Sequence record: PV245934.1
Direction: 5' to 3' (one strand)
DNA: 64,000 bases
Source of the DNA: Escherichia phage sutha
The stretch's first letter is position 1; every line of letters begins with the position of its first letter. Shown here in pieces: positions 472-63,930 of this stretch. A program made the position numbers and the translations under genes. A model generated the notes under the pieces. The model searched no databases. It worked only from the letters and a program-made list of their open reading frames with translations, and was not told the DNA's origin.

Positions 472-472
472 A

Positions 473-1232: not shown

Positions 1233-1310
1233 TTTCACCTCTTAGCTCAATTCATAGATCTATTATATCATAATATTTGAAGATCTATCTTAAAGCATAG
1301 AGGATATCAG

Positions 1311-1792: not shown

Positions 1793-1794
1793 AA

Positions 1795-2121
1795 TTATGC
1801 CTTAGTAATTTTCAGGTCAGCAAATTTTTTCTTGCGTTGATTTTTCATACGACGAATAGTTTTATCGGAAATTTCATGCTTTTGATAAGCTTTAGATTCT
1901 ACGCCAAAAGCTTTAACATCAAATTCTGACAAGATATATTGAACCAACAATTCACGGACAGTGTTGCGTCCAATCTTCTGATCATTCTGTTTCATCATTT
2001 GATGAAGCTCTTTTTCCCATTTATCCAAAATTTGAGGAGTTACAATATCGCCTTTTTCTAGCAAAGAAACTACTTTATCATATGCGTAAGAATTAATGAC
2101 GTTTTTAATTTGAATAGTCAT
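1795..2121 (-). CDS. hypothetical protein
   Basis: 108-aa ORF, basic C-terminus. Confidence 0.4.
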   Translation of the reverse strand: MTIQIKNVINSYAYDKVVSLLEKGDIVTPQILDKWEKELHQMMKQNDQKIGRNTVRELLVQYILSEFDVKAFGVESKAYQKHEISDKTIRRMKNQRKKKFADLKITKA

Positions 2122-2152
2122 ACATTATCCTCAATTGCGTTAAAATTTTATT

Positions 2153-2174
2153 ATCCAAAAAGGGCCGAAGCCCT
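2153..2174 (-). terminator. rho-independent terminator (minus strand)
   Basis: Hairpin agggc-cgaa-gccct with U-run on the transcribed strand. Confidence 0.5.
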
Positions 2175-2374
2175 TAGCTAAACTGTTTGGCTCCCTTCCA
2201 GCCTTCGTACATCATTGCGGCTGATATTAATATTGCTCCTGCGCATTTTGAATATTTGTGATTCCAAAACCAGTTCAGAAAAACTTCGTCATCAATACCT
2301 TGGGCTATCATATTTTCAAAGAACTGACGACGAGCTTCGGCAATTCGTTGCGATAATTTAGATTCAGGATTCAT
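2174..2374 (-). CDS. hypothetical protein
   Basis: 66-aa ORF followed by hairpin terminator. Confidence 0.4.
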   Translation of the reverse strand: MNPESKLSQRIAEARRQFFENMIAQGIDDEVFLNWFWNHKYSKCAGAILISAAMMYEGWKGAKQFS

Positions 2375-2590
2375 TTAAATTTTCCAGTTACCGTTTTCAT
2401 CAATAAATTTAATCCAGTCATTTACTGACCACTTGGTCGTATCGCCTTTTGGAGCAACATTTAAAGTGTATAATCCTTGTTTAAAAAGCATGCGTTTGAT
2501 ATTCATATTTTCCTCAGCTATAACGATAACACTCGTTTGATTTGCGCTTAGCAACTCGTTGAGAAGTATTGTAATCAAAATCATCGTCAA
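2375..2590 (-). CDS. hypothetical protein
   Basis: 71-aa ORF. Confidence 0.4.
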   Translation of the reverse strand: MTMILITILLNELLSANQTSVIVIAEENMNIKRMLFKQGLYTLNVAPKGDTTKWSVNDWIKFIDENGNWKI

Positions 2591-2853
2591 TGTAAACTGA
2601 TTTTTTTCAACTTTCTTACTTCACTACGTAATTGACGATTTAGCTCATCTTTAACTTCTGAATCAATGCCTTTCATTCTACGCCATTTATCAGAGCGAAA
2701 AATGTTTTCAACCATATCTTTATGACTTACACCATCAGGAGCTTTACGCTTTCCGAAATAGTCATAATCACGTACTTTTAAATCTTTACGACGATACGTT
2801 TTACCCATGGAGTTTAATTTCCTTAGCAACTGAACTAAATACAGCACGATCAC
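2587..2853 (-). CDS. hypothetical protein
   Basis: 88-aa ORF, basic. Confidence 0.4.
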   Translation of the reverse strand: MIVLYLVQLLRKLNSMGKTYRRKDLKVRDYDYFGKRKAPDGVSHKDMVENIFRSDKWRRMKGIDSEVKDELNRQLRSEVRKLKKISLH

Positions 2854-2983
2854 AAATCATCTGTTTATGTAACTTGAGTATAAGATAATAAACTTCAAAA
2901 CCGTTTACATAAGTAACACGAACAACATTACCATTAATAAAATAATATTGTCCCTTTTTAATCTCTTTATCAACCACAACCAT
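2801..2983 (-). CDS. hypothetical protein
   Basis: 60-aa ORF immediately downstream of an early promoter. Confidence 0.35.
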   Translation of the reverse strand: MVVVDKEIKKGQYYFINGNVVRVTYVNGFEVYYLILKLHKQMICDRAVFSSVAKEIKLHG

Positions 2984-3013
2984 ATCAAATCCTCAAAGGC
3001 AATTCATATGTTA

Positions 3014-3043
3014 ATAATACCACAGTTTGAACTTGTTGTAAAC
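3014..3043 (-). promoter_or_regulatory. early (sigma70-type) promoter
   Basis: Minus strand GTTTAC, ~18-nt spacer, TATTAT. Confidence 0.5.
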
Positions 3044-3111
3044 AACTTTGTGAAATTATTTTAGGGAATGATAAGAAGGGAACGATAGCTTAGAATGGTA
3101 ATATACAGAAT

Positions 3112-3136
3112 GTGAGAAAGAAAGGCCCAGAGGGCC
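3112..3136 (-). terminator. rho-independent terminator (minus strand)
   Basis: Hairpin ggccc-aga-gggcc followed by U-rich tract. Confidence 0.5.
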
Positions 3137-3140
3137 CGTC

Positions 3141-3593
3141 TTAGTCTTCTATGATATCTCTATCATATCCAAGTGAAATGAGAGTTTCTTTGAAGTGTTT
3201 AATGTTCTTTTGTCTAGAATCATTGATGAAAATGACTGGATAACGAATGTTAAGAGATGTGAATCCAGCACGTTTAGCAAGAGATACAATCAGTGGACGA
3301 TCATACTCAATCTTACCATTATTTGTAAGAACTTTATAGAAAGTAAAAGGAGCATTGAGCTCCTTTAGAAGTTTTGTAACTGATTGACATCCAGGACAAC
3401 GACCTACTTCATCTGGAATTCCATAGACTTCAATCTTATTCTTTGAGTTCGAGTTTTGTTCCACGAGAAATAATTCCTTGATAAGCCCAGTATGGCGGGT
3501 TAACAGAATCATCGCCAGAATTTTCTTCAGGAAAATAAACCTGGATAACAAATCCAGATGCATCAAAGGTAAAATAAACCGTAGGTAATTCAC
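3141..3593 (-). CDS. thioredoxin-fold (glutaredoxin-like, CPGC) protein; NrdH-like position
   Basis: CPGC redox motif in ...KIEVYGIPDEVGRCPGCQSV...; true start probably internal/non-ATG because the upstream ORF 3436..3747 overlaps in another frame. Confidence 0.5.
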   Translation of the reverse strand: MNYLRFILPLMHLDLLSRFIFLKKILAMILLTRHTGLIKELFLVEQNSNSKNKIEVYGIPDEVGRCPGCQSVTKLLKELNAPFTFYKVLTNNGKIEYDRPLIVSLAKRAGFTSLNIRYPVIFINDSRQKNIKHFKETLISLGYDRDIIED

Positions 3594-3749
3594 CTAACAA
3601 TTCAGCACGGTTATTAATTTCTTCAAGTTCTCGTTCTCGTCCAGCCCAAAAACTAGGATTTAGACTACATTCATAGAAATAATAGTCATTACCGAACATA
3701 TCAAAACCCTTCCAACTCTCTACCACATATCGCTCAAAACTAATCATAA

Positions 3750-3965
3750 TTAGGCCTTTTTATCAAGAACAGCATTTAGTTTGTTAGTAATTTTATCCAG
3801 ACGCTCATTGAACTCGCTAGAAGATAAGCCTTTTTCTGGAGAAATTAAGCTAATCACGAAAAATATAGCAATAAAAGGAATAAGGAAAATAGCTCCAACT
3901 GCCATAAACAGAAAGAATGTTACAGTTGTAAGAAAATCAGCTAAACCTTTACGAAATTTATACAT
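3750..3965 (-). CDS. small membrane protein
   Basis: 71 aa with a long hydrophobic segment. Confidence 0.4.
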   Translation of the reverse strand: MYKFRKGLADFLTTVTFFLFMAVGAIFLIPFIAIFFVISLISPEKGLSSSEFNERLDKITNKLNAVLDKKA

Positions 3966-4080
3966 ATTTTACCCTTAATTGATTAACCAAGCATTGATAA
4001 GCACTAAACTATACTGTGAATAAAATTCTGGACCAAAATGAAAAATCATATCATTTATAGTATCCATAATGTAATTCAAT

Positions 4081-4551
4081 TTAATCATGTTTCCACACCC
4101 CATCGGTATTTGACCAAAGTCGCTGATTATCTGATCCTCGCCACAGCTTTTTGGTCGGAAGATTTTTCTCATACTTCCCATCAATAATAACATCAACATA
4201 TTTAAGCATTTCTAGTTGTTTAATATCTTCAAACTTATATCCTGTCCACAACCAAATGCTTTTATTGGGATAAAGATTTTTTACTGTTTGAACAATGCAA
4301 TGAATAACATCTCGGTTATCAGGATAGAGAGGGTCTCCTCCAGTTATAGTTAATCCTTCTATATAATCATTATTCAAACATTCAATTAATTGTTCTAGTG
4401 TTTCACCAGTGAATGGAACGCCATTTCTAGCATTCCATGTTGATTTATTATAACACCCTTCACATTTATGCAAACAACCTGTAACGAAAAGAACGACCCT
4501 GCATCCAGGACCATTAACAAAGCAGCAAGGGTATATTCTGTCATAATTCAT
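4081..4551 (-). CDS. nrdG: anaerobic ribonucleotide reductase activating protein (radical SAM)
   Basis: Radical-SAM Cys cluster CCFVNGPGCRVVLFVTGCLHKCEGC; immediately downstream of nrdD; start taken at MNYDRIYP. Confidence 0.9.
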   Translation of the reverse strand: MNYDRIYPCCFVNGPGCRVVLFVTGCLHKCEGCYNKSTWNARNGVPFTGETLEQLIECLNNDYIEGLTITGGDPLYPDNRDVIHCIVQTVKNLYPNKSIWLWTGYKFEDIKQLEMLKYVDVIIDGKYEKNLPTKKLWRGSDNQRLWSNTDGVWKHD

Positions 4552-5282
4552 AATAATATCCAATTTTTCCAAGCTTCATCAGTAGAATTACAGCGTTTTA
4601 GTATAAGATGTCTAGAAACTTTTATGGCATTTGAGCACTTTTTAATTGAATCATATTTAATACCGTCAACTGAAACGGTTTTGCTAGTTGGAGAAATTTT
4701 TCCATACATTGGATTTTTTGAACCAACTTGAAGTCCTTTTAAAGCTTTTGAAAGCTTTTGTCTAGATTCCAATGACATGGGAGAATTCTTTTTACCTTCA
4801 ATAATTCGCTTGCGATGAAGTTCGCGTTCTTCTTCACTCAAAGAATTGTAATATTTTTTAACACCGTTTGATATAGATAATTTATCTTTCTCAGACCGCT
4901 CTCCAGCTAATTTACTTCTAACATCTTTTCGCTTCATAGCTATGCTTACGGCTTTATTTAAATTTGCTTGATGCTCTGGCGTACGTTTATATTTCTTTAA
5001 AGCACGTGAAATAGCTATTTTAGTTTCTTCTGTTCTCTTTTTACCTTTATTTGCTAAACTATTTTTGCGGCGATGTTCAAGTGTCTGTTCATAGGCAGTT
5101 CCACCTTTTCCACCAGGTTTAATATTATATGTATTTTCTTTTAGACAATACTCTTCGGTTACAAGTTCAGCTTCTTTATCATACATTTGTTTTTCATTAT
5201 CAAAAACATGTAAAATTTCTTTATTAAAATTTTTTCTACCATGTTTTAATAAAGCGGCACGAATCAATGTTCCTGACCCCAT
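4548..5282 (-). CDS. GIY-YIG family homing endonuclease, C-terminal portion (NUMOD-like DNA-binding repeats)
   Basis: Repeated basic helix motifs (RKNSLANKGKK.., SRQKLSKALKG..) typical of Seg-type DNA-binding domains; N-terminus begins mid catalytic domain (GSGTLIRAALLKHGRKNF). Confidence 0.7.
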   Translation of the reverse strand: MGSGTLIRAALLKHGRKNFNKEILHVFDNEKQMYDKEAELVTEEYCLKENTYNIKPGGKGGTAYEQTLEHRRKNSLANKGKKRTEETKIAISRALKKYKRTPEHQANLNKAVSIAMKRKDVRSKLAGERSEKDKLSISNGVKKYYNSLSEEERELHRKRIIEGKKNSPMSLESRQKLSKALKGLQVGSKNPMYGKISPTSKTVSVDGIKYDSIKKCSNAIKVSRHLILKRCNSTDEAWKNWILL

Positions 5283-22327: not shown

Positions 22328-22534
22328 TTAAAGCGTATTCACATAAGCTATTAATTCGTTTTCTTTCTTATCAAACCGGTCAGCAAATTCTTCTTGCTGT
22401 TCGGGAGATAGCGGGCCGTATTCATCATAAAAGGTGTTTGCTTCTGTATGCTCATCTAGAAGTTCATGGATAAGCTCAAACAATTTATCTTTTTGTTCTT
22501 TACTCAGACTCATAACCATGTAACCTTTAAGCAA
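22328..22534 (-). CDS. hypothetical protein
   Basis: 68-aa acidic ORF. Confidence 0.35.
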   Translation of the reverse strand: MLKGYMVMSLSKEQKDKLFELIHELLDEHTEANTFYDEYGPLSPEQQEEFADRFDKKENELIAYVNTL

Positions 22535-22722
22535 TATTCTTCTACATGTTGTTTACGACCTTTCCTATCAATAAAGGTATATTCAACGAATGTTCCAATA
22601 TAGTCTTTATCTACATCATGAGGACTATTAATTGGGCATTTAGTACGGCAAATGCGTTCCCATTGACGAATAATTTCTGCTTTGTTTTTAGGATCAAACG
22701 GATGCGGGTAATGTGCTTTCAT
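22510..22722 (-). CDS. hypothetical protein
   Basis: 70-aa ORF. Confidence 0.35.
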   Translation of the reverse strand: MKAHYPHPFDPKNKAEIIRQWERICRTKCPINSPHDVDKDYIGTFVEYTFIDRKGRKQHVEEYCLKVTWL

Positions 22723-23173
22723 AATCCACCACTATTAAATCAATATCAGGAGTAAACATGTCGATTAATTTAGAAACCTTATCCCAATCACCGCCAGCAA
22801 TACCGCAACCTATGCGTGGAATGTAAATTACTGGTTTAAACAAAAGGGTCTCTGCCTGTAGATTTAATTCTATCATGCAGTTTACTAAAGCACCATAATC
22901 AAGATTAGGACCCGGTTCGTATTGCGTATACAGGTTATAGCATATACCAAATCCCGTAGGACTATGTTTAAAAACAATAGACATATCGCCTAATTTATCG
23001 CGAGAACCGTACTCGGTAGTAGTTTTATCTATTTCTAAAATTTTAGGATAGGCCCTCGCTAATTGACCCGCTACACCTGAACCCATAGTATGAAAGCAGT
23101 TGCACCCGTGCGCAATAATATTACCTTGAAGAAATAGGGCGACAATATCGCCCTTGATATATTTTACAATCAT
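22694..23173 (-). CDS. macrodomain protein (ADP-ribose binding/processing)
   Basis: GDIVALFLQGNIIAHGCNCFHTMGSGVAGQL resembles the macrodomain core (GDIT...NAAN...GGGV). Confidence 0.6.
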   Translation of the reverse strand: MIVKYIKGDIVALFLQGNIIAHGCNCFHTMGSGVAGQLARAYPKILEIDKTTTEYGSRDKLGDMSIVFKHSPTGFGICYNLYTQYEPGPNLDYGALVNCMIELNLQAETLLFKPVIYIPRIGCGIAGGDWDKVSKLIDMFTPDIDLIVVDYESTLPASV

Positions 23174-23511
23174 CTAGTACTCAATCCTCGATTATAAGAA
23201 TCTACCAAACGGTCAACCATTGAATGACAAGCGGCTTTATCTTTCTCCTCCGCAACTGAACATTCTAAGGTATTCCACTTTTTAGCATATCGTTTTAATA
23301 AAGTATCGTTCTTGTATCTGCTTGATTTATCTCTTTCTCCGTCTTTATATGCATATATTAATTTCTGCGCAAATTCAGCTTGGCATGCTTTATTTTTCCC
23401 ACAATAATCCGCGGCAGTACGGTTTACATACTCTCTAATTTCAGTATATGATGTATTTGCTAACGCAGAAAATGAAATTAATCCTATACATAAAACCAAA
23501 ATTTTAGTCAT
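23170..23511 (-). CDS. secreted small protein
   Basis: Signal peptide MTKILVLCIGLISFSALA; several Cys. Confidence 0.45.
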   Translation of the reverse strand: MTKILVLCIGLISFSALANTSYTEIREYVNRTAADYCGKNKACQAEFAQKLIYAYKDGERDKSSRYKNDTLLKRYAKKWNTLECSVAEEKDKAACHSMVDRLVDSYNRGLSTR

Positions 23512-24049
23512 TTACTATTTCCAAAAGTTTATTATTTTTAAGGTAGTTAGCCTTTTCTAGGACTTCAGAAGCATATTTAGAACCTGCTTTAACATTCCAT
23601 CCCGAATTATAAGAGGATATCGCCTTTCTTATATCGCCCTTATGTATATTTAACCAATAAGAAAGTTCAATGTACGCCCAGGAAGCTGAATTGGACCGTT
23701 TATTCAACATTCTTTTTATTTCGGCATCGGTCATATTATAACCAAGTTCCTTAACTCTTGCTCGCATAGTTGGCAAATAATTTTGGAACATTCCATAGGC
23801 ATGATGTTTTGGTTTAGATTTTAAATTAACTCCGGCAGAGCTTTCTTGCCATAAAATAGCAGCCATTATATGACCTAATCCGCTCTTGTGGATATTTTTA
23901 TGTGTTTTATATTTTCCATCCTTAGAAAATTGTTCCCCGAATTGATACGCGTAACGCATGTTATCGAGTTGGACATTACTGAAAGTATGCTCGGAGCTAT
24001 GTGCCATCATTGAAATGGCCAATAGACCAGCGAGTAGTGCTTTTCTCAT
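23504..24049 (-). CDS. periplasmic lytic-transglycosylase-like protein
   Basis: Signal peptide, then ILWQESSAGVN and AYGMFQ motifs resembling the SLT/family-1 catalytic ES...GLMQ pattern. Confidence 0.5.
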   Translation of the reverse strand: MRKALLAGLLAISMMAHSSEHTFSNVQLDNMRYAYQFGEQFSKDGKYKTHKNIHKSGLGHIMAAILWQESSAGVNLKSKPKHHAYGMFQNYLPTMRARVKELGYNMTDAEIKRMLNKRSNSASWAYIELSYWLNIHKGDIRKAISSYNSGWNVKAGSKYASEVLEKANYLKNNKLLEIVND

Positions 24050-24056
24050 GCTTACC

Positions 24057-24518
24057 TCATTGAGTTTTAATTACTGCTTTAGAAGCCTTTCCCGGTAAAC
24101 GACGACTATTGATAATTGCCATCCTGCACTGAAGTGACGGGTCTTTGAACTTCGCATTAGGTTTACAAACTGTAAATCCAAGCCAAAGATTTCCATCTGT
24201 GATTTCTAAACGTCCAGGACGATATTCAACCCCATCAATAAAATCCTCGTCAATGTCAGGACGCGGAGGCATACTCAGGAATTCATTAACTTCTAAAACA
24301 TGGTCTTTTATTTTGTGGAATAATTCAAAAACATATGTCTCATCAATCTCCCGTTGAATTGCACGATCAAGAAGATGCTGAGAATATTTTAGATGAAACG
24401 ATGAGACCCCTGCTGCTTTTGATGCCTCACGAATCTCATTGTTAATTTGACGAAACTCCGACTCAAAGTGACGACGGAGCTTATTTCGACGGATAAAAAC
24501 TTCTGTGTTGATAGTCAT
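24057..24518 (-). CDS. regB: RegB-like endoribonuclease (by size, position and recollection)
   Basis: 153 aa, preceded by a perfect early promoter (GTTTAC N18 TATAAT); lies between tk and e as regB does in T4. Confidence 0.55.
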   Translation of the reverse strand: MTINTEVFIRRNKLRRHFESEFRQINNEIREASKAAGVSSFHLKYSQHLLDRAIQREIDETYVFELFHKIKDHVLEVNEFLSMPPRPDIDEDFIDGVEYRPGRLEITDGNLWLGFTVCKPNAKFKDPSLQCRMAIINSRRLPGKASKAVIKTQ

Positions 24519-27594: not shown

Positions 27595-28125
<531 letters not shown>

Positions 28126-39250: not shown

Positions 39251-39258
39251 TATAAATA
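39251..39258 (+). promoter_or_regulatory. late promoter (TATAAATA) for gene 53 operon
   Basis: Exact TATAAATA 29 nt upstream of gp53 ATG. Confidence 0.65.
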
Positions 39259-39286: not shown

Positions 39287-39877
39287 ATGCTCTTTACATT
39301 TTTTGATCCGATTGAATATGCGGCCAAAACAGTGAATAAAAACGCGCCGACTATTCCTATGACAGATATTTTTAGAAACTATAAAGACTATTTTAAACGC
39401 GCTCTTGCGGGATACCGCTTACGTACTTATTATATCAAAGGTTCACCACGCCCGGAAGAATTAGCAAATGCTATATATGGAAATCCGCAGTTGTATTGGG
39501 TTTTATTGATGTGTAATGATAATTATGATCCGTATTATGGATGGATTACTTCGCAAGAAGCTGCTTATCAAGCATCTATACAAAAATACAAAAACGTAGG
39601 TGGAGACCAAATAGTATATCATGTGAATGAGAACGGTGAAAAATTCTATAATTTAATATCATACGATGATAATCCATATGTTTGGTATGACAAAGGCGAT
39701 AAAGCTAGAAAATATCCTCAATATGAAGGAGCACTTGCTGCGGTCGATACGTATGAAGCTGCTGTTCTTGAAAATGAAAAACTTCGTCAAATAAAAATAA
39801 TAGCAAAATCAGACATCAATTCATTTATGAACGACCTTATACGTATAATGGAGAAATCTTATGGAAATGATAAGTAA
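39287..39877 (+). CDS. 53: baseplate wedge protein gp53
   Basis: 196 aa; TATAAATA late promoter upstream. Confidence 0.9.
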   Translation: MLFTFFDPIEYAAKTVNKNAPTIPMTDIFRNYKDYFKRALAGYRLRTYYIKGSPRPEELANAIYGNPQLYWVLLMCNDNYDPYYGWITSQEAAYQASIQKYKNVGGDQIVYHVNENGEKFYNLISYDDNPYVWYDKGDKARKYPQYEGALAAVDTYEAAVLENEKLRQIKIIAKSDINSFMNDLIRIMEKSYGNDK

Positions 39878-41633
39878 TAACCTCAATTGGTTTGTTGGTG
39901 TTGTTGAAGATAGAATGGACCCATTAAAATTAGGTCGTGTTCGTGTTCGTGTAGTTGGTCTGCATCCACCTCAAAGAGCGCAAGGCGACGTAATGGGTAT
40001 TCCAACCGATAAATTACCATGGATGTCAGTTATTCAACCTATAACTTCTGCAGCAATGTCTGGAATTGGAGGCTCCGTTACTGGTCCGGTAGAAGGAACT
40101 AGAGTTTATGGTCATTTTTTAGACAAATGGAAAACTAACGGAATTGTCCTTGGCACATATGGCGGAATAGTTCGCGAAAAGCCTAATAGGCTTGAAGGAT
40201 TTTCTGACCCAACTGGACAGTATCCTAGACGTCTAGGAAATGATACTAACGTATTAAACCAAGGCGGAGAAGTAGGATATGATTCGTCTTCTAATATTAT
40301 CCAAGATAGCAATCTAGACACTGCGATAAATCCCGATGATAGACCACTATCAGAAATTCCAACTGATGATAATCCAAATATGTCAATGGCTGAAATGCTT
40401 CGCCGTGATGAAGGATTAAGACTAAAAGTTTATTGGGATACTGAAGGATATCCGACAATTGGTATTGGTCATCTTATCATGAAGCAGCCAGTTCGTGATA
40501 TGACTCAAATTAATAAAGTTTTATCAAAACAAGTTGGTCGTGAAATTACCGGAAATCCAGGTTCTATTACAATGGAAGAGGCGACAGCTTTATTTGAACG
40601 CGATTTGGCTGATATGCAACGTGACATTAAATCACATTCTAAAGTTGGCCCAGTTTGGCAGGCAGTTAATCGTTCTCGTCAAATGGCATTAGAAAACATG
40701 GCATTTCAGATGGGTGTTGGTGGTGTAGCTAAATTTAACACATTGTTAACTGCTATGTTAGCAGGAGATTGGGAAAAAGCATATAAAGCTGGTCGTGATT
40801 CATTGTGGTATCAACAAACAAAAGGACGTGCATCCCGTGTTACTATGATTATTCTTACGGGAAATTTGGAATCATATGGTGTTGAAGTGAAAACCCCAGC
40901 TAGGTCTCTATCAGCAATGGCGGCTACTGTAGCTAAATCTTCTGACCCTGCTGACCCTCCTATTCCAAATGACTCGAGAATTTTATTCAAAGAACCAGTT
41001 TCTTCATATAAAGGCGAATATCCTTATGTGCATACAATGGAAACTGAAAGCGGACATATTCAGGAATTTGATGATACCCCTGGGCAAGAACGATACAGAT
41101 TAGTTCATCCGACAGGAACTTATGAAGAAGTATCACCATCAGGAAGAAGAACAAGAAAAACTGTCGATAATTTGTATGATATAACAAATGCTGATGGTAA
41201 TTTTTTGGTAGCCGGCGATAAAAAGACTAACGTCGGTGGATCAGAAATTTATTACAACATGGATAATCGTCTCCACCAAATAGATGGAAGCAATACAATA
41301 TTTGTGCGTGGCGATGAAACGAAAACTGTTGAAGGTAATGGAACTATCCTAGTTAAAGGTAATGTTAAAGTAGTTATTCAAGGAACAGCAGATATAACTG
41401 TTGAACAGGAAGCATACATAACTGTTGAAAAAGACACGACTGTTAATGTTAACCAAAACGCAGACATAAGTGTTAAAAATAAAGCAACTGTTAATGCTGA
41501 AAATATGGATGTCAACGTTGAGCAAGATTTAAATTTTTCAGCGACAAATATTAATTTAAGTGCATCTAATACTGTTCATATGGATGGCGGGGTTCTTTCT
41601 AAAGTATCAGGTGGAAACGTACAGGTTGGTTAA
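39861..41633 (+). CDS. 5: baseplate hub / tail lysozyme gp5 (variant C-terminal beta-helix region)
   Basis: N-terminal MEMISNNLNWFVGVVED..., internal lysozyme domain MAEMLRRDEGLRLKVYWDTEGYPTIGIGHL; 590 aa versus 575 recalled for T4, with a different last ~100 aa. Confidence 0.9.
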   Translation: MEMISNNLNWFVGVVEDRMDPLKLGRVRVRVVGLHPPQRAQGDVMGIPTDKLPWMSVIQPITSAAMSGIGGSVTGPVEGTRVYGHFLDKWKTNGIVLGTYGGIVREKPNRLEGFSDPTGQYPRRLGNDTNVLNQGGEVGYDSSSNIIQDSNLDTAINPDDRPLSEIPTDDNPNMSMAEMLRRDEGLRLKVYWDTEGYPTIGIGHLIMKQPVRDMTQINKVLSKQVGREITGNPGSITMEEATALFERDLADMQRDIKSHSKVGPVWQAVNRSRQMALENMAFQMGVGGVAKFNTLLTAMLAGDWEKAYKAGRDSLWYQQTKGRASRVTMIILTGNLESYGVEVKTPARSLSAMAATVAKSSDPADPPIPNDSRILFKEPVSSYKGEYPYVHTMETESGHIQEFDDTPGQERYRLVHPTGTYEEVSPSGRRTRKTVDNLYDITNADGNFLVAGDKKTNVGGSEIYYNMDNRLHQIDGSNTIFVRGDETKTVEGNGTILVKGNVKVVIQGTADITVEQEAYITVEKDTTVNVNQNADISVKNKATVNAENMDVNVEQDLNFSATNINLSASNTVHMDGGVLSKVSGGNVQVG

Positions 41634-41634
41634 T

Positions 41635-43671
41635 ATGAATTATAACGAAATTGTTGATGAATTAGTTGATACCATACAATCAGCTTGTTCAATTATTCCC
41701 GAAGGTTATTATAGACGAGTTAAATGGGAATTATACAATCCCAATAAAGAAATGATTCAACCCGATAATGGGGTTGAATGGGACACTGAAATTATTAAAT
41801 TAGATACCCATCTTTACACCGAAAATCCATTTGGTCATTCTTCTGATACATTTACTGAATCATCTGATGGAGAAACCCAAACTGGTGTTTTTTGTCATAA
41901 AATCGGCGTGTATTTTCCAACTCAAACTGCGTTAGAAGATTACGTTGAACAAATTGGTGCAACTTTACTTCCAGGTAATACTTGGTATGGTGCTGATTTA
42001 TCGAAACGTGAATTTTTTAAAACTGAAATTGAATATGATATGTATCGCATTGAAAATCGCGGAGGTACATGGCATCATACGGGTCCTAGAATAGATGCTA
42101 GGACAATGATCGGTGTTAACAATGACTATACAATGTATGTTAACTTTAACGGTTTAGGAGATTATCGAAGAGCATATTTAAAATATTATGAAGATAAACC
42201 ATGCACATATGTCGGTTTAACACTAAATTTAAATATAGATACATCAATTCCCGGTATTCCTTATTCACCTCCATCAATTATTGGAGAGCTTCCACTTAAT
42301 GCAATTTCATGCGTTAATTTTACTGCCCAATTTCCATACAATGGCTTAACAACTGCAATTATTGAGGCTTGGAACACCTCAAGAGATTCATTTAAACTAT
42401 ATTGGGATATGTTGCCTGGTATGCCGGCAATTAGCGGAAGTGATTTTGAAAAATATTTTAATTCGGCATATACACATTTATCTGTAGCAATGGAAGAGCT
42501 TGGAAATTCGGCAATTGCCATGTGTCAATATGTTCAGCAACAAGCCTTTATGGTTTTTAAAAATTCTGTTTCACAAGTTCTAAATATTGTCGGTGGCGGA
42601 TGGGATTTATTAAAAAGTTTTTTACCTAAAATAACAATAATGGGCATATCTATTGATATTGAAGATTTATGTACATCAACAGATGGTGTTCAAAAATTGA
42701 AGGAAACCTTTGAAAATTTTAATCTGGAAGATACTATTAGTTCAATTTATTCTGCAATGGGTTCTGCATATGACTATTCTATAGAACGCGTTAAAATGTA
42801 TTCGCGGGATTTAGTTGATGCAATAACAGATTTATATGATTGGGCCTGGTCAAAATTAATGATGGCCGGTGTCGCTTTATCAAAATTATGTGTTGATTTA
42901 GCACAAATCTGGAGCATGCCACCAATTATTCCAAATCCAGTGTGGTCTGTTATCACTTTAGTGAAGGAAATGATGAAACAAATTCCTCCATTAGATATGA
43001 TTATGTCAGGTAATTTTCCTGGATTTACTGCTTCTGATGTATATCAGATGGTTATGTCTATCGTATCTGAAAAAATTAAACAAGTTTATAATGAAATAGA
43101 ATCATTAAAAACCCAAGCATTGGATGTATGGAATGAAATTAAACTAAAAACACAGGAATATAAAAAGCAAACGATTGAATTTAAACAATATTTATCAGGA
43201 ATGGCTGAAAAGGTTGAAGATGAAATAACTATAGCAAAAAAGAAAGCGTTACAAGAAGCTGAATCCGCTTTAAATGTTTTAAAGGATAAATATAACAGTA
43301 TTAAAGACTTGATAAAAAATAAACAGATTTCTGTGTCTGATGTATTAGATTTAGCTTTGACTGAATTTCGAAAAATTCCATTAATTTCACAAATGGAATC
43401 ATTATTATCTTTAGCTGGAGCATCTATCGATGATATAATGAAAGTATATGAAAATAGCGTTACTAAAGCAAAATCATTATATCACGAATTCACCGATGGC
43501 GCTCGGTCAATGAAAGATCTATGCAAATCATTATACAATCAAATTTCGACTTTATGTTTGAGTAAGGTTGTGCAATGGATTAATAAAATGCTTGGAATAT
43601 TTGGATTAAGTATTACATTTCCAACAGTATCAATATGCATTCCATGCTTAAAAACTCCTATGAGGAATTAA
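41635..43671 (+). CDS. large protein of unknown function between gp5 and gp6
   Basis: 678 aa from ATG one nt after the gp5 stop (MNYNEIVDELVD...), ends 1 nt before gp6; central coiled coil, hydrophobic C-terminal segments; no motif I recognise. Confidence 0.7.
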   Translation: MNYNEIVDELVDTIQSACSIIPEGYYRRVKWELYNPNKEMIQPDNGVEWDTEIIKLDTHLYTENPFGHSSDTFTESSDGETQTGVFCHKIGVYFPTQTALEDYVEQIGATLLPGNTWYGADLSKREFFKTEIEYDMYRIENRGGTWHHTGPRIDARTMIGVNNDYTMYVNFNGLGDYRRAYLKYYEDKPCTYVGLTLNLNIDTSIPGIPYSPPSIIGELPLNAISCVNFTAQFPYNGLTTAIIEAWNTSRDSFKLYWDMLPGMPAISGSDFEKYFNSAYTHLSVAMEELGNSAIAMCQYVQQQAFMVFKNSVSQVLNIVGGGWDLLKSFLPKITIMGISIDIEDLCTSTDGVQKLKETFENFNLEDTISSIYSAMGSAYDYSIERVKMYSRDLVDAITDLYDWAWSKLMMAGVALSKLCVDLAQIWSMPPIIPNPVWSVITLVKEMMKQIPPLDMIMSGNFPGFTASDVYQMVMSIVSEKIKQVYNEIESLKTQALDVWNEIKLKTQEYKKQTIEFKQYLSGMAEKVEDEITIAKKKALQEAESALNVLKDKYNSIKDLIKNKQISVSDVLDLALTEFRKIPLISQMESLLSLAGASIDDIMKVYENSVTKAKSLYHEFTDGARSMKDLCKSLYNQISTLCLSKVVQWINKMLGIFGLSITFPTVSICIPCLKTPMRN

Positions 43672-43672
43672 A

Positions 43673-45652
43673 ATGACAACTCCTGTAAATTATCAATTAA
43701 CAAGAACAGCAAATGCTATTCCCGAGATATTCGTCGGGGGTACATTTGCTGAAATAAAACAAAACCTCATTGAATGGCTTAATGGTCAAAATGAATTTTT
43801 GGATTATGATTTTGAAGGCTCAAGATTAAACGTTCTGTGCGACCTTTTGGCTTATAATACATTATACATTCAGCAGTTTGGTAATGCTGCCGTATATGAA
43901 AGCTTTATGCGTACTGCTAACTTACGTAGTTCAGTAGTTCAAGCGGCACAAGATAATGGATATTTACCTACTTCAAAATCAGCTGCTCAAACTGAAATTA
44001 TGCTAACTTGTACAGATGCATTGAATAGAAATTACATTACTATTCCTCGCGGTACTCGCTTTTTAGCATATGCAAAAGATACTTCTGTTAATCCATATAA
44101 CTTCGTTTCTACTGAAGACGTTATTGCTATTCGTGATAAAAATAACCAATATTTTCCGCGTTTAAAATTAGCCCAGGGGCGTATAGTAAGAACTGAAATC
44201 ATTTATGATAAATTAACACCTATTATCATTTATGACAAAAATATAGATAGAAACCAAGTTAAACTATATGTTGATGGAGCAGAATGGATTAACTGGACAA
44301 GAAAGTCAATGGTTCATGCTGGTTCTACATCAACAATTTACTACATGCGTGAAACTATTGATGGAAATACTGAGTTTTATTTTGGTGAAGGCGAGATTTC
44401 TGTTAATGCGGCAGAAGGAGCATTGACTGCTAATTATATTGGAGGTCTTAAACCTACCCAGAACTCTACGATTGTTATTGAGTACATCAGTACTAACGGT
44501 GCAGATGCGAATGGTGCAGTCGGATTTTCATACGCAGATACATTAACAAATATAACTGTCATCAACATTAATGAAAATCCAAACGATGACCCAGATTTTG
44601 TTGGGGCAGATGGCGGCGGCGATCCAGAAGATATTGAGCGTATTCGCGAATTGGGTACTATTAAACGCGAAACCCAGCAACGCTGCGTAACTGCGACTGA
44701 CTATGATACATTCGTTTCAGAGAGATTTGGTTCTATTATTCAAGCAGTTCAGACTTTCACTGATTCTACTAAACCTGGTTATGCATTTATTGCTGCTAAA
44801 CCTAAATCAGGGTTGTATTTAACTACTGTACAACGCGAAGATATTAAAAATTATCTCAAAGACTATAATTTAGCTCCTATTACGCCATCAATTATTTCTC
44901 CTAATTATCTTTTTATTAAGACTAATTTAAAAGTCACATATGCTTTAAATAAGCTACAAGAATCCGAACAGTGGCTCGAAGGTCAAATAATTGATAAAAT
45001 TGATCGTTATTATACCGAAGACGTAGAAATTTTTAACTCATCTTTCGCTAAATCTAAGATGTTGACATATGTAGATGATGCAGATCATTCTATCATTGGT
45101 TCATCAGCGACAATTCAAATTGTTCGTGAAGTACAAAACTTCTATAAAACGCCTGAAGCAGGTATTAAATACAATAATCAAATAAAAGATCGTTCTATGG
45201 AATCTAATACGTTTTCATTTAATTCTGGACGAAAGGTTGTAAATCCTGATACTGGTTTAGAAGAAGATGTATTATATGACGTTCGCATAGTATCAACAGA
45301 CCGAGATTCTAAAGGAATTGGTAAAGTTATTATTGGTCCATTTGCTTCTGGCGATGTTACAGAAAATGAAAACATTCAGCCGTATACAGGCAACGATTTT
45401 AACAAATTAGCAAATTCTGATGGACGCGACAAATACTATGTTATCGGTGAAATAAATTATCCAGCTGATGTGATTTATTGGAATATCGCTAAAATTAATT
45501 TAACATCTGAAAAATTTGAAGTTCAGACTATTGAATTATATTCTGACCCAACCGATGATGTTATCTTTACTCGCGATGGTTCACTGATTGTATTTGAAAA
45601 TGACTTACGTCCACAATACTTAACTATCGATTTGGAGCCTATATCACAATGA
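43673..45652 (+). CDS. 6: baseplate wedge protein gp6
   Basis: 659 aa; size and order. Confidence 0.9.
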   Translation: MTTPVNYQLTRTANAIPEIFVGGTFAEIKQNLIEWLNGQNEFLDYDFEGSRLNVLCDLLAYNTLYIQQFGNAAVYESFMRTANLRSSVVQAAQDNGYLPTSKSAAQTEIMLTCTDALNRNYITIPRGTRFLAYAKDTSVNPYNFVSTEDVIAIRDKNNQYFPRLKLAQGRIVRTEIIYDKLTPIIIYDKNIDRNQVKLYVDGAEWINWTRKSMVHAGSTSTIYYMRETIDGNTEFYFGEGEISVNAAEGALTANYIGGLKPTQNSTIVIEYISTNGADANGAVGFSYADTLTNITVININENPNDDPDFVGADGGGDPEDIERIRELGTIKRETQQRCVTATDYDTFVSERFGSIIQAVQTFTDSTKPGYAFIAAKPKSGLYLTTVQREDIKNYLKDYNLAPITPSIISPNYLFIKTNLKVTYALNKLQESEQWLEGQIIDKIDRYYTEDVEIFNSSFAKSKMLTYVDDADHSIIGSSATIQIVREVQNFYKTPEAGIKYNNQIKDRSMESNTFSFNSGRKVVNPDTGLEEDVLYDVRIVSTDRDSKGIGKVIIGPFASGDVTENENIQPYTGNDFNKLANSDGRDKYYVIGEINYPADVIYWNIAKINLTSEKFEVQTIELYSDPTDDVIFTRDGSLIVFENDLRPQYLTIDLEPISQ

Positions 45653-48600
45653 CAGTAAAAGCACCTTCAGTCACTAGTCTCAGAATTTCCAAGTTATCCG
45701 CAAATCAGGTGCAAGTACGCTGGGATGACGTTGGTGCTAATTTCTACTATTTTGTAGAAATCGCTGAGACAAAAACAAACTCGGGGGAAAATCTCCCGAG
45801 TAATCAATACAGATGGATTAACTTAGGATATACTGCAAATAACAGCTTCTTTTTTGATGATGCTGACCCATTGACATCATACGTTATTAGAGTAGCTACA
45901 GCTGCACAAGATTTTGAACAGTCTGATTGGATTTATACCGAAGAGTTTGAAACTTTTGCTACAAATGCTTATACATTTCAAAACATGATTGAAATGCAAT
46001 TAGCTAATAAATTCATTCAGGAAAAATTTACTCTTAATAATTCTGATTATGTCAATTTTAATAATGACACTATAATGGCTGCATTAATGAATGAATCATT
46101 TCAGTTCAGCCCATCATATGTTGACGTTTCATCAATAAGCAATTTTATTATTGGTGAAAATGAGTATCATGAAATACAAGGTTCTATTCAGCAAGTATGT
46201 AAGGATATTAACCGAGTTTATTTGATGGAATCGGAAGGGATTTTATACCTTTTTGAGCGTTATCAACCTGTAGTTAAAGTATCCAATGATAAAGGACAAA
46301 CTTGGAAAGCTGTAAAGCTCTTCAATGACCGCGTAGGATATCCTTTATCTAAGACAGTATATTACCAATCTGCGAACACAACATACGTTCTAGGATACGA
46401 CAAGATTTTCTATGGCCGCAAATCGACTGATGTTAGATGGTCAGCTGATGATGTCAGATTTAGTTCTCAGGATATAACATTCGCTAAACTTGGCGACCAA
46501 TTACATTTAGGATTTGATGTAGAAATTTTTGCTACTTACGCGACTTTACCGGCGAATGTATACCGTATTGCAGAAGCTATTACTTGCACCGATGATTACA
46601 TTTACGTTGTCGCCAGAGACAAAGTTAGATACATAAAAACTAGTAATGCACCTATAGATTCTGATCCATTATCTCCGACATATTCGGAAAGACTTTTTGA
46701 ACCTGATACAATGACTATAACCGGAAATCCTAAAGCAGTATGCTATAAAATGGATTCTGTCGGTGATAAAGTTTTTGCTCTTATTATTGGTGAAGTTGAA
46801 ACACTAAATGCTAATCCTAGAACATCAAAAATAATTGATTCTGCTGATAAAGGAATATATGTTTTAAATCATGACACAAAAACATGGAAAAGAGTTTTTG
46901 GCAACACTGAAGAAGAAAGAAGACGTATTCAACCAGGGTATGCGAATATGTCAACTGATGGTAAATTAGTTTCTCTATCATCGAGTAATTTTAAATTTTT
47001 AAGTGATAATGTTGTTAATGACCCTGAAACTGCAGCAAAATATCAGTTAATCGGTGCCGTTAAATATGAATTTCCTCGTGAATGGCTAGCTGATAAGCAT
47101 TATCATATGATGGCATTTATAGCAGATGAAAAGTCTGATTGGGAAACTTTTACTCCTCAGCCGATGAAATACTACGCTGAACCATTCTTTAACTGGTCTA
47201 AAAAATCTAACACACGTTGTTGGATAAACAACTCTGATAGGGTTGTAGTAGTTTATGCTGATTTAAAATATACTAAAGTTATAGAAAACATTCCTGAAAC
47301 ATCACCAGATAGATTAGTTCATGAATACTGGGACGATGGCGATTGTACTATAGTAATGCCAAATGTTAAATTCACTGGATTTAAAAAATATGCATCTGGG
47401 ATGCTTTTCTATAAAGCCTCTGGTGAAATAATTTCTTACTATGATTTTAACTATCGTGTTAGAGACACTGTCGAAATTATTTGGAAGCCAACTGAAGTAT
47501 TTTTAAAAGCATTTTTACAAAACCAAGAGCATGAAACTCCTTGGTCGCCTGAAGAAGAGCGTGGATTAGCTGACCCTGATTTAAGACCGTTGATTGGCAC
47601 AATGATGCCTGATTCTTATTTGTTACAGGATTCGAATTTTGAGGCATTTTGCGAAGCATATATTCAATATCTTTCTGATGGATATGGAACTCAGTATAAC
47701 AATTTACGAAATTTAATTCGTAACAAATATCCACGAGAAGAGCATGCATGGGAATATTTGTGGTCAGAGATATATAAAAGAAACATTTATTTAAATGCTG
47801 ATAAACGTGATGCTGTTGCGAGATTCTTTGAATCACGTAGCTATGATTTTTATTCTACTAAAGGAATTGAAGCATCATACAAGTTTCTTTTTAAAGTTCT
47901 TTATAATGAAGAAGTTGAAATTGAAATCGAATCTGGGGCTGGTACTGAATATGACATAATCGTTCAATCTGATTCTTTGACTGAAGATTTAGTAGGACAA
48001 ACGATTTATACAGCTACAGGAAGATGTAATGTTACTTATATAGAAAGAAGCTATTCTAATGGTAAATTGCAATGGACCGTAACTATTCATAATCTTTTAG
48101 GAAGATTAATTGCTGGTCAAGAAGTTAAAGCAGAAAGACTCCCTAGTTTTGAAGGCGAAATTATTCGCGGGGTTAAAGGGAAGGATTTGCTTCAAAACAA
48201 TATAGACTATATTAATAGAAGTAGATCATACTATGTAATGAAAATTAAATCCAATTTGCCTTCTTCCCGCTGGAAATCTGACGTTATTCGTTTTGTTCAT
48301 CCAGTAGGATTTGGATTTATAGCAATTACTCTTTTAACAATGTTTATTAATGTTGGTTTAACTCTTAAACATACAGAGACTATAATTAATAAATACAAAA
48401 ACTATAAATGGGATTCTGGATTGCCTACTGAATATGCTGATAGAGTAGCTAAATTAACTCCAGCTGGTGAAATTGAACATGATCCAGTAACAGGCGAAGC
48501 AATTTATGAGCCTGGCCCAATGGCTGGCGTAGAATATCCTCTTCCTGATGACTATAATGCTGAAAATAACAATTCAATATTTCAAGGTCAATTGCCATCT

Positions 48601-58765: not shown

Positions 58766-61903
<3,138 letters not shown>

Positions 61904-61934
61904 ATATATTAAAGCATATTAAAGAGGATTAAAA

Positions 61935-63914
61935 ATGACTTTATTATCTCCGGGCATTGAGCTCAAAGAAACTACGGTTCAAAGCACCGTGGTTAATAAC
62001 TCTACTGGTACAGCAGCTCTGGCCGGTAAATTCCAGTGGGGTCCTGCTTTTCAAATTAAACAGGTTACAAATGAAGTAGATTTAGTTAATACTTTTGGTC
62101 AACCTACAGCTGAAACTGCTGACTATTTTATGTCTGCAATGAATTTCTTACAATACGGAAATGATTTACGAGTTGTGCGTGCTGTCGATAGAGATACCGC
62201 TAAAAACTCATCTCCGATTGCCGGTAATATTGAATACACTATTTCTACCCCAGGTAGTAACTACGCGGTTGGAGATAAAATCACGGTTAAGTATGTTTCA
62301 GAAGACATTGAAACAGAATGTAAAGTTACCGAAGTAGATGCTGATGGAAAAATTAAGAAAATTAATATTCCTACCGCAAAAATTATCGCTAAAGCGAAAG
62401 AAGTAGGCGAATATCCAGCATTAGGTTCTAACTGGACCGCGGAAATTTCTTCGTCTTCCTCTGGTTTAGCTGCAGTAATAACTCTTGGAAAAATTATTAC
62501 TGATTCTGGTATTTTATTAGCTGAAATTGAAAATGCCGAAGCTGCTATGACAGCTGTTGACTTTCAAGCAAATCTCGAAAAATATGGAATTCCAGGAGTA
62601 GTAGCTCTTTATCCAGGCGAGTTGGGCGATAAAATCGAAATTGAAATCGTATCTAAAGCTGACTACGCAAAAGGTGCTTCTGCATTACTTCCAATTTATC
62701 CAGGCGGCGGCACACGCGCATCTACTGCCAAAGCAGTGTTTGGATACGGACCACAAACTGATTCACAATACGCTATTATAGTTCGTCGCAATGATGCTAT
62801 TGTTCAAAGCGTTGTTCTTTCAACGAAGCGTGGTGAAAAAGATATTTACGATAGTAACATCTATATTGATGACTTTTTCGCAAAAGGTGGTTCAGAATAT
62901 ATTTTTGCAACTGCACAAAACTGGCCAGAAGGCTTCTCTGGAATTTTAACTCTGTCTGGTGGATTATCGTCAAATGCTGAAGTAACAGCAGGAGATTTGA
63001 TGGAAGCTTGGGACTTCTTTGCTGACCGTGAATCTGTTGATGTTCAGTTGTTTATTGCGGGTTCTTGCGCCGGCGAATCTTTAGAAACAGCATCTACTGT
63101 CCAAAAACACGTCGTCTCAATTGGGGATGCTCGCCAGGATTGCTTAGTACTGTGCTCTCCACCGCGTGAAACTGTAGTTGGAATTCCTGTAACTCGTGCT
63201 GTTGATAACTTAGTCAACTGGAGAACTGCAGCAGGTTCATACACTGATAATAACTTTAATATCAGTTCAACCTACGCAGCAATTGATGGTAACTACAAGT
63301 ATCAGTATGACAAATATAATGATGTGAATCGTTGGGTTCCATTAGCAGCTGATATTGCTGGTTTGTGTGCAAGAACTGATAACGTTTCTCAGACTTGGAT
63401 GTCTCCAGCTGGTTATAATCGTGGCCAGATTCTTAACGTTATTAAACTTGCTATTGAAACTCGCCAGGCGCAGCGCGACCGTTTATACCAAGAAGCTATC
63501 AACCCAGTAACTGGTACAGGTGGTGATGGTTACGTATTGTATGGTGATAAAACAGCTACTTCTGTTCCTTCTCCATTTGATCGTATTAACGTTCGTCGTC
63601 TGTTTAATATGTTAAAAACGAATATCGGACGTAGTTCAAAATATCGTTTGTTCGAATTAAACAACGCGTTTACTCGTTCATCGTTCCGCACAGAAACTTC
63701 CCAGTACTTGCAGGGAATTAAAGCTCTCGGTGGAATTTATGAATATCGTGTAGTTTGCGATACAACAAATAACACTCCATCAGTAATTGATAGAAATGAG
63801 TTTGTTGCAACATTCTACATTCAACCGGCTAGAAGCATTAACTACATTACCTTAAACTTCGTAGCAACTGCTACTGGTGCAGATTTCGATGAGTTAACTG
63901 GTCTTGCAGGTTAA
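61935..63914 (+). CDS. 18: tail sheath protein gp18
   Basis: 659 aa MTLLSPGIELKETTVQSTVVNN..., near-identical to recalled T4 gp18. Confidence 0.97.
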   Translation: MTLLSPGIELKETTVQSTVVNNSTGTAALAGKFQWGPAFQIKQVTNEVDLVNTFGQPTAETADYFMSAMNFLQYGNDLRVVRAVDRDTAKNSSPIAGNIEYTISTPGSNYAVGDKITVKYVSEDIETECKVTEVDADGKIKKINIPTAKIIAKAKEVGEYPALGSNWTAEISSSSSGLAAVITLGKIITDSGILLAEIENAEAAMTAVDFQANLEKYGIPGVVALYPGELGDKIEIEIVSKADYAKGASALLPIYPGGGTRASTAKAVFGYGPQTDSQYAIIVRRNDAIVQSVVLSTKRGEKDIYDSNIYIDDFFAKGGSEYIFATAQNWPEGFSGILTLSGGLSSNAEVTAGDLMEAWDFFADRESVDVQLFIAGSCAGESLETASTVQKHVVSIGDARQDCLVLCSPPRETVVGIPVTRAVDNLVNWRTAAGSYTDNNFNISSTYAAIDGNYKYQYDKYNDVNRWVPLAADIAGLCARTDNVSQTWMSPAGYNRGQILNVIKLAIETRQAQRDRLYQEAINPVTGTGGDGYVLYGDKTATSVPSPFDRINVRRLFNMLKTNIGRSSKYRLFELNNAFTRSSFRTETSQYLQGIKALGGIYEYRVVCDTTNNTPSVIDRNEFVATFYIQPARSINYITLNFVATATGADFDELTGLAG

Positions 63915-63930
63915 TACGGTGCATTCTAAA

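Follow-up and report, generated by a model that had tools for sequence, protein, structure and literature searches.

Gene organization between genes 5 and 6

A stretch of 64,000 nucleotides (nt) of Escherichia phage sutha (sequence record PV245934.1), hereafter called the window, was analyzed with respect to an open reading frame (ORF) of 678 amino acids (aa) that lies between the baseplate genes 5 and 6. Genes 53, 5, the ORF, 6, and 7 follow one another in this order on the + strand, and the interval between genes 5 and 6 is wholly occupied by the ORF. The features of the locus are listed below.

39861..41360, + strand: T4-type part of gene 5 (gp5 residues 1-500), with the OB and lysozyme domains and the proximal beta-helix (Pfam Gp5_OB, Phage_lysozyme, and Gp5_C)
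41321..41367, + strand: left junction, near-identical in T4-type and SP18-type genes, encoding ...ETKTVEGNGTILVKGNV
41368..41633, + strand: exchanged beta-helix tip of gp5 (residues 503-590), which exceeds that of T4 by 15 residues and ends in ...SGGNVQVG-COOH
41635..43671, + strand: the ORF, 678 aa from ATG, a member of RB43 orf205w / PHROG 5296 and a putative single-copy non-PAAR spike-tip protein
43668..43685, + strand: right junction, from the ORF end and the ribosome-binding site of gene 6 to codon 5 of gene 6
43673..45652, + strand: gene 6 (baseplate wedge), T4-type from codon 5 on

Only 1 nt separates the gene 5 stop codon from the ATG of the ORF, and again 1 nt lies between the ORF stop codon and the ATG of gene 6 (43673); the tight coupling to both neighbors that a preliminary description of the window had reported was thus confirmed. 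The ATG at 41635 was taken as the start rather than an upstream in-frame GTG at 41560, because M1 and Y3 of the ORF are near-invariant across 60 homologs. The ORF is far beyond chance, since full-length homologs occur in 215 phage records. No significant domain was detected in the ORF by a Pfam scan, in which the best E value of 0.047 was under the cut-offs of all families and reflected sub-threshold coiled-coil noise only; this is consistent with the earlier remark that no catalytic motif could be recognized. In T4, the gene 5-gene 6 interval carries 5.1, segC, 5.3, and 5.4, of which 5.4 is annotated as PAAR, and the small T4 genes named for this place in the preliminary description were therefore correct.

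Variant tip of gp5

The gp5 of the window (39861-41633) consists of 590 aa, against 575 aa in T4. Up to residue 502 it is approximately 99% identical to T4 gp5, and beyond this point the identity is 15-56% per 25-column block. The length and a C-terminus unlike that of T4 had been noticed from the letters of the window, whereas the extent of the difference, put at approximately 100 aa, needed correction to the last 88 residues. The tip is 89.8% identical to those of phages Bp7, CJ20, and E33 and 41% identical to that of RB43, and SP18 gp5 is also close to it over the tip. Where gp5 stands beside the ORF, its C-terminus has the form GG(N/T)V(Q/S/V)VG (the window, SP18, RB43, and two distant metagenomic members, which end in ...TGGTVSVG and ...TGGTVVVG); in the PAAR-type phages T4 and JS98, gp5 ends in DGSRIDIG. 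Residues 503-590 may serve as the docking platform for the ORF product. Elsewhere in the window, the - strand encodes at 27607-28089 a paralog with 44% identity to the lysozyme domain of gp5. A T4-type genome is expected to have gene e, for the soluble T4 lysozyme, and this is presumably what the paralog represents.

The ORF belongs to the RB43 orf205w family

The ORF had been described as unrecognized. It belongs, however, to a conserved family, PHROG 5296 / RB43 orf205w, a member of which was first listed as a novel ORF (RB43ORF205w) in 2006. The match to PHROG 5296 ('unknown function') had an E value of 0 and joined ORF residues 1-673 to positions 1-684 of the 685 positions of the profile, and in a tblastn search RB43 orf205w aligned with 99% of the query at 41.9% identity (E = 4e-157). 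Protein identity to the ORF was 72% for the SP18-type (Gaprivervirus) homologs, 60% for Salmonella phage KM16, 55% for Proteus phages, 46% for Cronobacter and Citrobacter phages, and approximately 41% for RB43, Lw1, Miller, KP15, and many Klebsiella and Enterobacter phages; named members are RB43ORF205w, Helios gp203, SP18 gp165 (72%), and KP15_158. The homologs are conserved at full length across at least six phage genera.

The ORF lies directly 3' of gene 5 at every locus inspected (the window, PD112, SP18, RB43, KP15, and two metagenomic contigs, L019 and L020), and in SP18, RB43, and KP15 the homolog sits between genes 5 and 6. The two metagenomic contigs hold the most distant members, one of them 29% identical: L019 is arranged as gp5 end, ORF, gp25, and gp6, and L020 as a short gp5 followed by the ORF. 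When 1.84 billion representative proteins were searched exhaustively with a profile, approximately eight full-length clusters at 50% identity were obtained, plus fragments, so the orf205w family appears to be small and confined to T4-like phages.

Two details of the metagenomic loci may be recorded here. In L019, an ENA metagenome scaffold, a gp25-like gene (PF04965; 2542-2967) lies between the ORF homolog and gene 6, an order unlike that of T4 and the window. In L020 (JGI metagenome contig Ga0620835_007198), the gp5 preceding the most distant homolog (219-1388) has 389 aa with Gp5_OB as its only recorded Pfam hit; it appears to be without the lysozyme domain and still ends in ...FTGGTVVVG. 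In addition, several homologs bear labels that look wrong, namely 'tail length tape measure protein', 'SbcC-like subunit of palindrome specific endonuclease', and 'baseplate hub structural protein' (e.g. PQ657796 Roth23, PP889464, PP889466, and PP782000).

Two published studies deal with relatives of the ORF. Mattenberger, Leiman, Belin et al. (bioRxiv 2025, PMC12407873) reported that RB43, RB16, and Lw1 are without gene 5.4 and that orf205w fills the 5.1-5.4 locus, that residues 1-220 of RB43 orf205w are a mixture of alpha and beta structure with a helical remainder, and that the last 60 gp5 residues of RB43 and T4 share just 15% identity. Their RB43 baseplate map at 17.7 Å contained a larger spike-tip protein, into which a low-confidence AlphaFold model of orf205w could be fitted, and they proposed the orf205w family as a non-PAAR spike tip, alternative to PAAR and much larger. 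In a 2026 paper on Klebsiella grimontii phages (PMC13611949), an AlphaFold3 model of the Helios gp5 (gp202) trimer with the orf205w homolog gp203 placed a triple coiled coil (Phe287-Ile327, Glu398-Trp440, and Lys631-Ile670) on the last gp5 beta-strand, with a loop as the far end.

Co-inheritance of the gp5 tip and the ORF

The 88-aa gp5 tip matched 214 phage records (E <= 1e-3), compared with 215 found by tblastn for the ORF. The counts by genus name were equal for the tip and the ORF among the eight commonest names (Klebsiella 113, Escherichia 26, Enterobacter 20, Cronobacter 18, Citrobacter 13, Proteus 7, Salmonella 4, and Shigella 3). The gp5 tip type and the ORF thus co-occur essentially 1:1, which supports the earlier suggestion that the tip and the downstream gene were swapped together. 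Judged from these sequence comparisons, the last 88 gp5 residues and the tip protein are a matched pair that is inherited as one cassette of 2.3 kb.

The junctions of the cassette were placed by nucleotide alignment of the window with T4 and SP18. On the left, the last T4-specific site is at 41360 and the first SP18-specific run begins at 41368, so the crossover lies in 41361-41367 (gp5 codons 501-503). On the right, the last SP18-type site is at 43681 and an unbroken T4-type run begins at 43685, which places the crossover at approximately 43668-43685. The left junction is shared by another pair of phages: gp5 of SP18 and gp5 of JS98 (Dhakavirus) are 88-100% identical per block to residue ~500, and after KGNV the JS98 protein continues into the T4-type tip and the SP18 protein into the window-type tip; in the place taken by the ORF in SP18, JS98 has 5.1 and 5.4. 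Because the left junction of the window also separates JS98 from SP18, T4-like phages have two alternative cassettes that have changed backbones on two or more occasions, in each case at this point of the beta-helix. In the lineage of phage sutha, the cassette has replaced the T4-type unit (the T4 gp5 tip, 5.1, segC, 5.3, and 5.4) via homologous recombination through the conserved beta-helix segment at the left and the very start of gene 6 at the right.

As a side observation, T4 annotates oriE (5356 of the T4 locus, L005) and repEA inside gene 5 (L005 5086-5356), ~110 bp upstream of the exchange point of the tip cassette (T4 gp5 codon 502 at L005 ~5465; window equivalent ~41250-41367). Origin activity, or the segC homing endonuclease of the T4-type cassette, might favor recombination at this place.

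Recent spread among Tequatroviruses

The ORF was at least 99.3% identical at the DNA level in nine Tequatrovirus-type records of E. coli and Salmonella phages, in all of which it is annotated as 'hypothetical protein'. These nine records represent PD112, SG1, JEP6, BYEP01, G8, and F26, some being counted as both GenBank and RefSeq copies. Carriers with a Tequatrovirus backbone comprise only these 9 records, against more than 1,400 records with gp5.4. The identity of the window to PD112 was distributed as follows.

gp5 residues 1-500: 95.7%
gp5 tip (266 nt): 100%
ORF (2037 nt): 99.8%
gene 6: 97.5%
gene 7: 96.4%

Inside the junctions, the window and PD112 differed at 4 of 2325 nt, whereas 123 mismatches in 3876 nt (3.2%) were found outside (binomial P = 4e-27). 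This difference indicates that the cassette was shared much later than the backbones diverged and points to transfer by homologous recombination. The near-identical tract overruns the T4/SP18-type junctions by ~50 nt on the left (41316-41367) and by ~100 nt on the right (43672-43785); hence, the recent exchange among Tequatroviruses used flanking T4-type homology and not the original junctions. Beyond the nine records, the nearest relatives have just 72-73% protein identity, indicating that the original donor lineage is unsampled. In the literature searched, no discussion of this locus was found in papers on PD112, G8, SG1, JEP6, or BYEP01.

The comparison with PD112 also revealed a difference in the gene 17 region. 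The large terminase gene of PD112 is annotated as two pieces with a 'hypothetical protein' (734-1333) between them, and the window is without ~1 kb of this region (PD112 626-1641), its positions 60218-60842 and 60839-63915 corresponding to PD112 1-625 and 1642-4718. This stretch, present in PD112 and not in the window, resembles a mobile insertion.

Absence of a PAAR-type gene

T4 gp5.4 gave no match in the window by tblastn (best E = 3.1). A PAAR profile was then used that had been built from seven diverse phage gp5.4 proteins, 29-58% identical to T4 gp5.4, and that recovered every omitted member in leave-one-out trials (E = 1e-20 to 1e-38). The window corresponds to PD112 109258-168084 plus 1-4718, so that the window together with PD112 1-112000 makes one genome equivalent, in which PD112 (96-98% identical) stands in for the phage genome beyond the window. 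The profile found nothing in the six frames of this combined sequence (best E = 2.7). The earlier statement that the window has no PAAR-type gene was thereby borne out with both tblastn and a validated profile.

The ORF itself was also considered as a PAAR protein and as a fusion or descendant of gp5.1, and both possibilities were rejected. When the family profile was compared with the PAAR profile and with T4 gp5.1, the hhalign probabilities were 0.1% and 0.45%, respectively, and the Pfam scan, tblastn, and the custom profile were likewise negative for PAAR; because of these two probabilities, the ORF is neither a diverged PAAR protein nor a fusion of the displaced genes. Separately, the orthologs of T4 gp5.4 (PAAR) are often labelled 'phospholipase' or 'putative phospholipase', and sometimes 'baseplate wedge protein', in public records; we saw no support for a phospholipase.

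Predicted fold of the ORF product

An AlphaFold2 monomer model was calculated from a 60-sequence alignment and had a mean predicted local distance difference test score (pLDDT) of 87.7 and a predicted template modelling (TM) score of 0.80. The elements of the predicted fold, all on the + strand, are listed with their mean column conservation where available.

41635..42474, + strand: residues 1-280, mixed alpha/beta N-terminal domain (AlphaFold2; conservation 0.59), in agreement with the description of RB43 orf205w
42487..42591, + strand: residues 285-319, core helix 1 of a three-helix bundle (AlphaFold2; conservation 0.65), corresponding to Helios gp203 Phe287-Ile327
42799..42912, + strand: residues 389-426, core helix 2 (AlphaFold2; conservation 0.68), corresponding to Helios gp203 Glu398-Trp440
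43030..43332, + strand: residues 466-566, long antiparallel amphipathic helical hairpin (AlphaFold2; helices 466-520 and 529-566, loop 521-528)
43498..43599, + strand: residues 622-655, core helix 3 (AlphaFold2; conservation 0.78, the most conserved element), corresponding to Helios gp203 Lys631-Ile670
43585..43653, + strand: residues 651-673, hydrophobic C-terminal segment (MLGIFGLSITFPTVSICIPCL; Kyte-Doolittle peak 1.6-1.8), comprising the end of helix 3 and then a strand at 664-673

The central coiled coil and the hydrophobic C-terminus pointed out in the preliminary description are accordingly real, as central long helices in the model and a Kyte-Doolittle peak at residues 651-673. The last eight residues (671-678) had a mean pLDDT of 65. 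The linker of residues 427-465 has a conservation of 0.74 and alone falls within the range of the core helices (0.65-0.78). The hairpin of residues 466-566 is the most variable part of the family (conservation 0.41-0.46), with a mean identity to the window of 33% versus 59% for the core, and may form the distal, host-facing end. Foldseek detected no analogue in the PDB (best E = 0.07, TM 0.12), and a search of BFVD returned family members only, among which an independent model of a homolog superposed at a TM of 0.86. Neither the solved structures nor the viral models contain an analogue of the fold beyond the family itself.

Expression

One further feature lies upstream of the locus.

39251..39258, + strand: T4-type late promoter motif TATAAATA, upstream of gene 53 in the divergent intergenic region between genes 4 and 53

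This is the sole + strand copy of the motif before 49336. The motif occurred 15 times in the whole window against 11.05 expected, a count that is not above chance, and the argument rests on its position. No convincing + strand terminator was found in 39300-46000. Because the next + strand motif is at 49336, genes 53, 5, the ORF, 6, 7, and those that follow would form one late transcription unit. As far as can be judged from the motifs, transcription of the ORF is probably late, as part of the baseplate gene unit, and its translation is probably coupled to that of genes 5 and 6.

Possible role of the ORF product

The product of the ORF is probably a virion spike-tip protein of the orf205w type that is bound to gp5. 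A virion-associated spike-tip protein or an ejected protein had been offered in the preliminary description; the co-inheritance with the gp5 tip, the absence of PAAR, and the larger tip of RB43 make the former the most likely role, with the protein standing in place of the PAAR protein gp5.4. One copy would cap the gp5 trimer instead of PAAR, docking via the conserved three-helix bundle (285-319, 389-426, and 622-655), which would extend the threefold axis of the gp5 beta-helix. The variable hairpin (466-566) and the N-terminal alpha/beta domain would then build a much larger tip with the hairpin directed towards the host, and it is with this enlarged tip that the virion would first come up against the host envelope upon contraction of the sheath. 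From the RB43 cryo-electron microscopy (cryo-EM) map at 17.7 Å and from AlphaFold models of homologs that are 41% identical to the ORF, we infer where in the virion the protein lies, in how many copies, by which surface it docks, and how it takes part in penetration.

Several points weigh against this assignment. The RB43 map has a resolution of just 17.7 Å and was refined with C6 symmetry, and its authors write that the tip is 'possibly encoded by orf205w'; their co-expression of orf205w with a gp5 beta-helix fragment failed, and the confidence of AlphaFold was low (PMC12407873). The literature search found no virion proteomics or structure for a cassette-bearing Tequatrovirus. The evidence for the absence of PAAR is limited to this lineage, by the profile scan, and to RB43, RB16, and Lw1, by publication. 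Finally, the co-inheritance of adjacent segments could partly be simple linkage; the sharp, reused left junction argues otherwise, without excluding linkage. As to proteomes of other phages, the papers on KP15/KP27 and Eap-3 contain none, and the ValerieMcCarty phages are Jiaodavirus of the PAAR type. The proteome table of Morganella phage MP1 skips from gp141 to gp147 and leaves the gene 5 region unlisted; it is uninformative on a single-copy tip.

Other roles were weighed against that of a spike tip. The protein could be mainly membrane-active or ejected, located at or near the spike. Once puncture has taken place, its long amphipathic helices would change their fold to enter one of the two membranes, outer or inner, or would interact with a partner in the periplasm, thereby opening or priming a conduit for the DNA. 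Such an activity may coexist with attachment at the tip. The hairpin does resemble apolipoprotein-like amphipathic helices, and tape-measure proteins matched by the family profile bear Apolipoprotein-domain matches in the aligned region; furthermore, the C-terminus of the ORF is hydrophobic, and published work shows that the P2 spike reaches the periplasm and that a fragment of the T4 spike tip contacts PpiD. However, Foldseek finds no analogue, and the C-terminal segment is the sole predicted transmembrane helix and yet forms part of the conserved core in the models, so that we regard this explanation as unlikely. The same amphipathic-helix matches account for the annotation of some homolog records as 'tail length tape measure protein', because they are weak and occur where tape-measure proteins carry apolipoprotein-like matches. 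A tape-measure or tail-length determining function would draw on weak matches to tape-measure PHROGs (E = 6e-6 to 7e-5), which overlap the hairpin (within ORF residues ~477-640), on matches of the family profile to proteins bearing PF10145 PhageMin_Tail (E = 4.5e-7 to 2.5e-4), and on those labels. The profile matches, however, all fall in the helical part of the ORF, with their best stretches inside ~260-640, and do not extend to the PhageMin_Tail domain; the ORF has no tape-measure Pfam domain and occupies the gp5.4 slot outside the hub cluster, and PD112 has a T4-type gp29 homolog at the usual place (22400-24172, annotated 'baseplate hub protein'). A tape-measure identity is thus effectively refuted and can be set aside with near certainty.

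The protein might also not be a virion component at all but an assembly factor or chaperone that folds or trims the extended gp5 tip, or cargo linked to the variant gp5 tip with an unrelated function, for example in superinfection exclusion or anti-defence. A tight linkage to the gp5 tip is equally expected of a dedicated chaperone, no detection by virion proteomics was found in the literature searched, and the published co-expression with the gp5 beta-helix fragment failed. Against this, the tip of RB43 virions has additional density whose size is roughly as expected, and no PAAR gene is present in RB43 (PMC12407873). In addition, conservation of 678 aa at full length over at least six genera, a place in the late baseplate operon, and coupling to genes 5 and 6 are typical of a structural protein. 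The gp5 beta-helices of T4 are not known to need a dedicated chaperone of such a kind for folding, which also counts against this explanation. Consequently, a role outside the virion appears very unlikely, more so than membrane activity at the spike.

Comparison with known systems

With the RB43 orf205w family, the ORF shares full-length homology (41-72% identity to the named members), the position after gene 5, the gp5 end GGxVxVG, an architecture in which an alpha/beta N-terminal region of about 220-280 residues precedes an otherwise all-helical chain built around three core helices, and the absence of a PAAR gene, as found for this lineage and published for RB43, RB16, and Lw1. Unlike in that family, the module here stands in a Tequatrovirus backbone with a gp5 that is essentially that of T4 to residue 502. 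The role of the orf205w family is itself proposed from cryo-EM at 17.7 Å and models. The spike-tip idea has already been published for the relatives, and we found no paper mentioning Tequatrovirus carriers. New in the present study are the exact bounds of the module, the 1:1 co-inheritance of the tip, the reuse of the junction in a second lineage, the recent horizontal spread, and a confident fold without an analogue outside the family.

T4 gp5.4 (PAAR; PDB 4KU0, cited in PMC12407873) occupies the same slot as the last gene before gene 6 and is likewise co-inherited with its own type of gp5 tip. The proposed job is also alike, namely that of a single protein capping the threefold gp5 beta-helix as the membrane-attacking tip. 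In contrast, the ORF product has no sequence relationship to gp5.4 and no PAAR domain, is seven times larger, and is mainly alpha-helical, unlike the small cone of beta structure formed by PAAR; the gp5 tip with which it is paired is longer by 15 residues. In phage P1, the UpfB tripod on the PAAR protein UpfC (PMC13611949) resembles the ORF product in being an alpha-helical extension with a distal loop at the end of the puncturing device of a myophage. However, P1 keeps PAAR and adds three copies of a separate helical protein, whereas a single chain instead of PAAR is proposed here. No match to UpfB appeared among the results of the PDB and BFVD searches; no direct structural comparison was made.

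The modules of VgrG, PAAR, and effector in type VI secretion systems bear a general likeness to the present case, in that the end of the spike and the protein docked on it vary as an exchangeable unit while the rest is conserved. The analogy to effector cargo that had been drawn for the ORF was not supported: there is no catalytic or toxin domain and no likeness to PAAR, no adaptor or immunity gene, and no sign of a delivered effector, and structure searches of the PDB and BFVD gave no enzyme fold.

Significance of the alternative tip

A contractile tail makes its first contact with the cell through the spike tip. In T4, gp5.4 has only lately been found to be important for fitness and for infecting hosts with deep-rough lipopolysaccharide (LPS) (PMC12407873). 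The window represents a natural chimera, a T4 backbone bearing the alternative, non-PAAR tip. From its junctions, the minimal exchangeable unit is the last 88 residues of gp5 plus the tip gene, which shows the part of gp5 that specifies the tip partner. Near-isogenic sets exist, with T4-like PAAR-type phages on one side and PD112, G8, SG1, JEP6, and this phage on the other, so that the function of the large tip can be tested with T4 genetics. The public labels 'tape measure', 'SbcC-like', and 'baseplate hub' for family members warrant correction.

It is conceivable, though we give the idea little weight, that the orf205w type is a new class of membrane-active tip, whose fast-evolving amphipathic hairpin inserts into or remodels the envelope or recognizes one of its components and thereby sets the hosts or LPS types that can be penetrated, both cassettes being kept in T4-like phage populations and swept between backbones for their differing penetration specificities.

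The reuse of the junction in a second lineage, together with a cassette far less diverged than the backbone, suggests that the type of tip is under selection and moves horizontally. Such selection and transfer are relevant to host range and to how phages are chosen for therapy.

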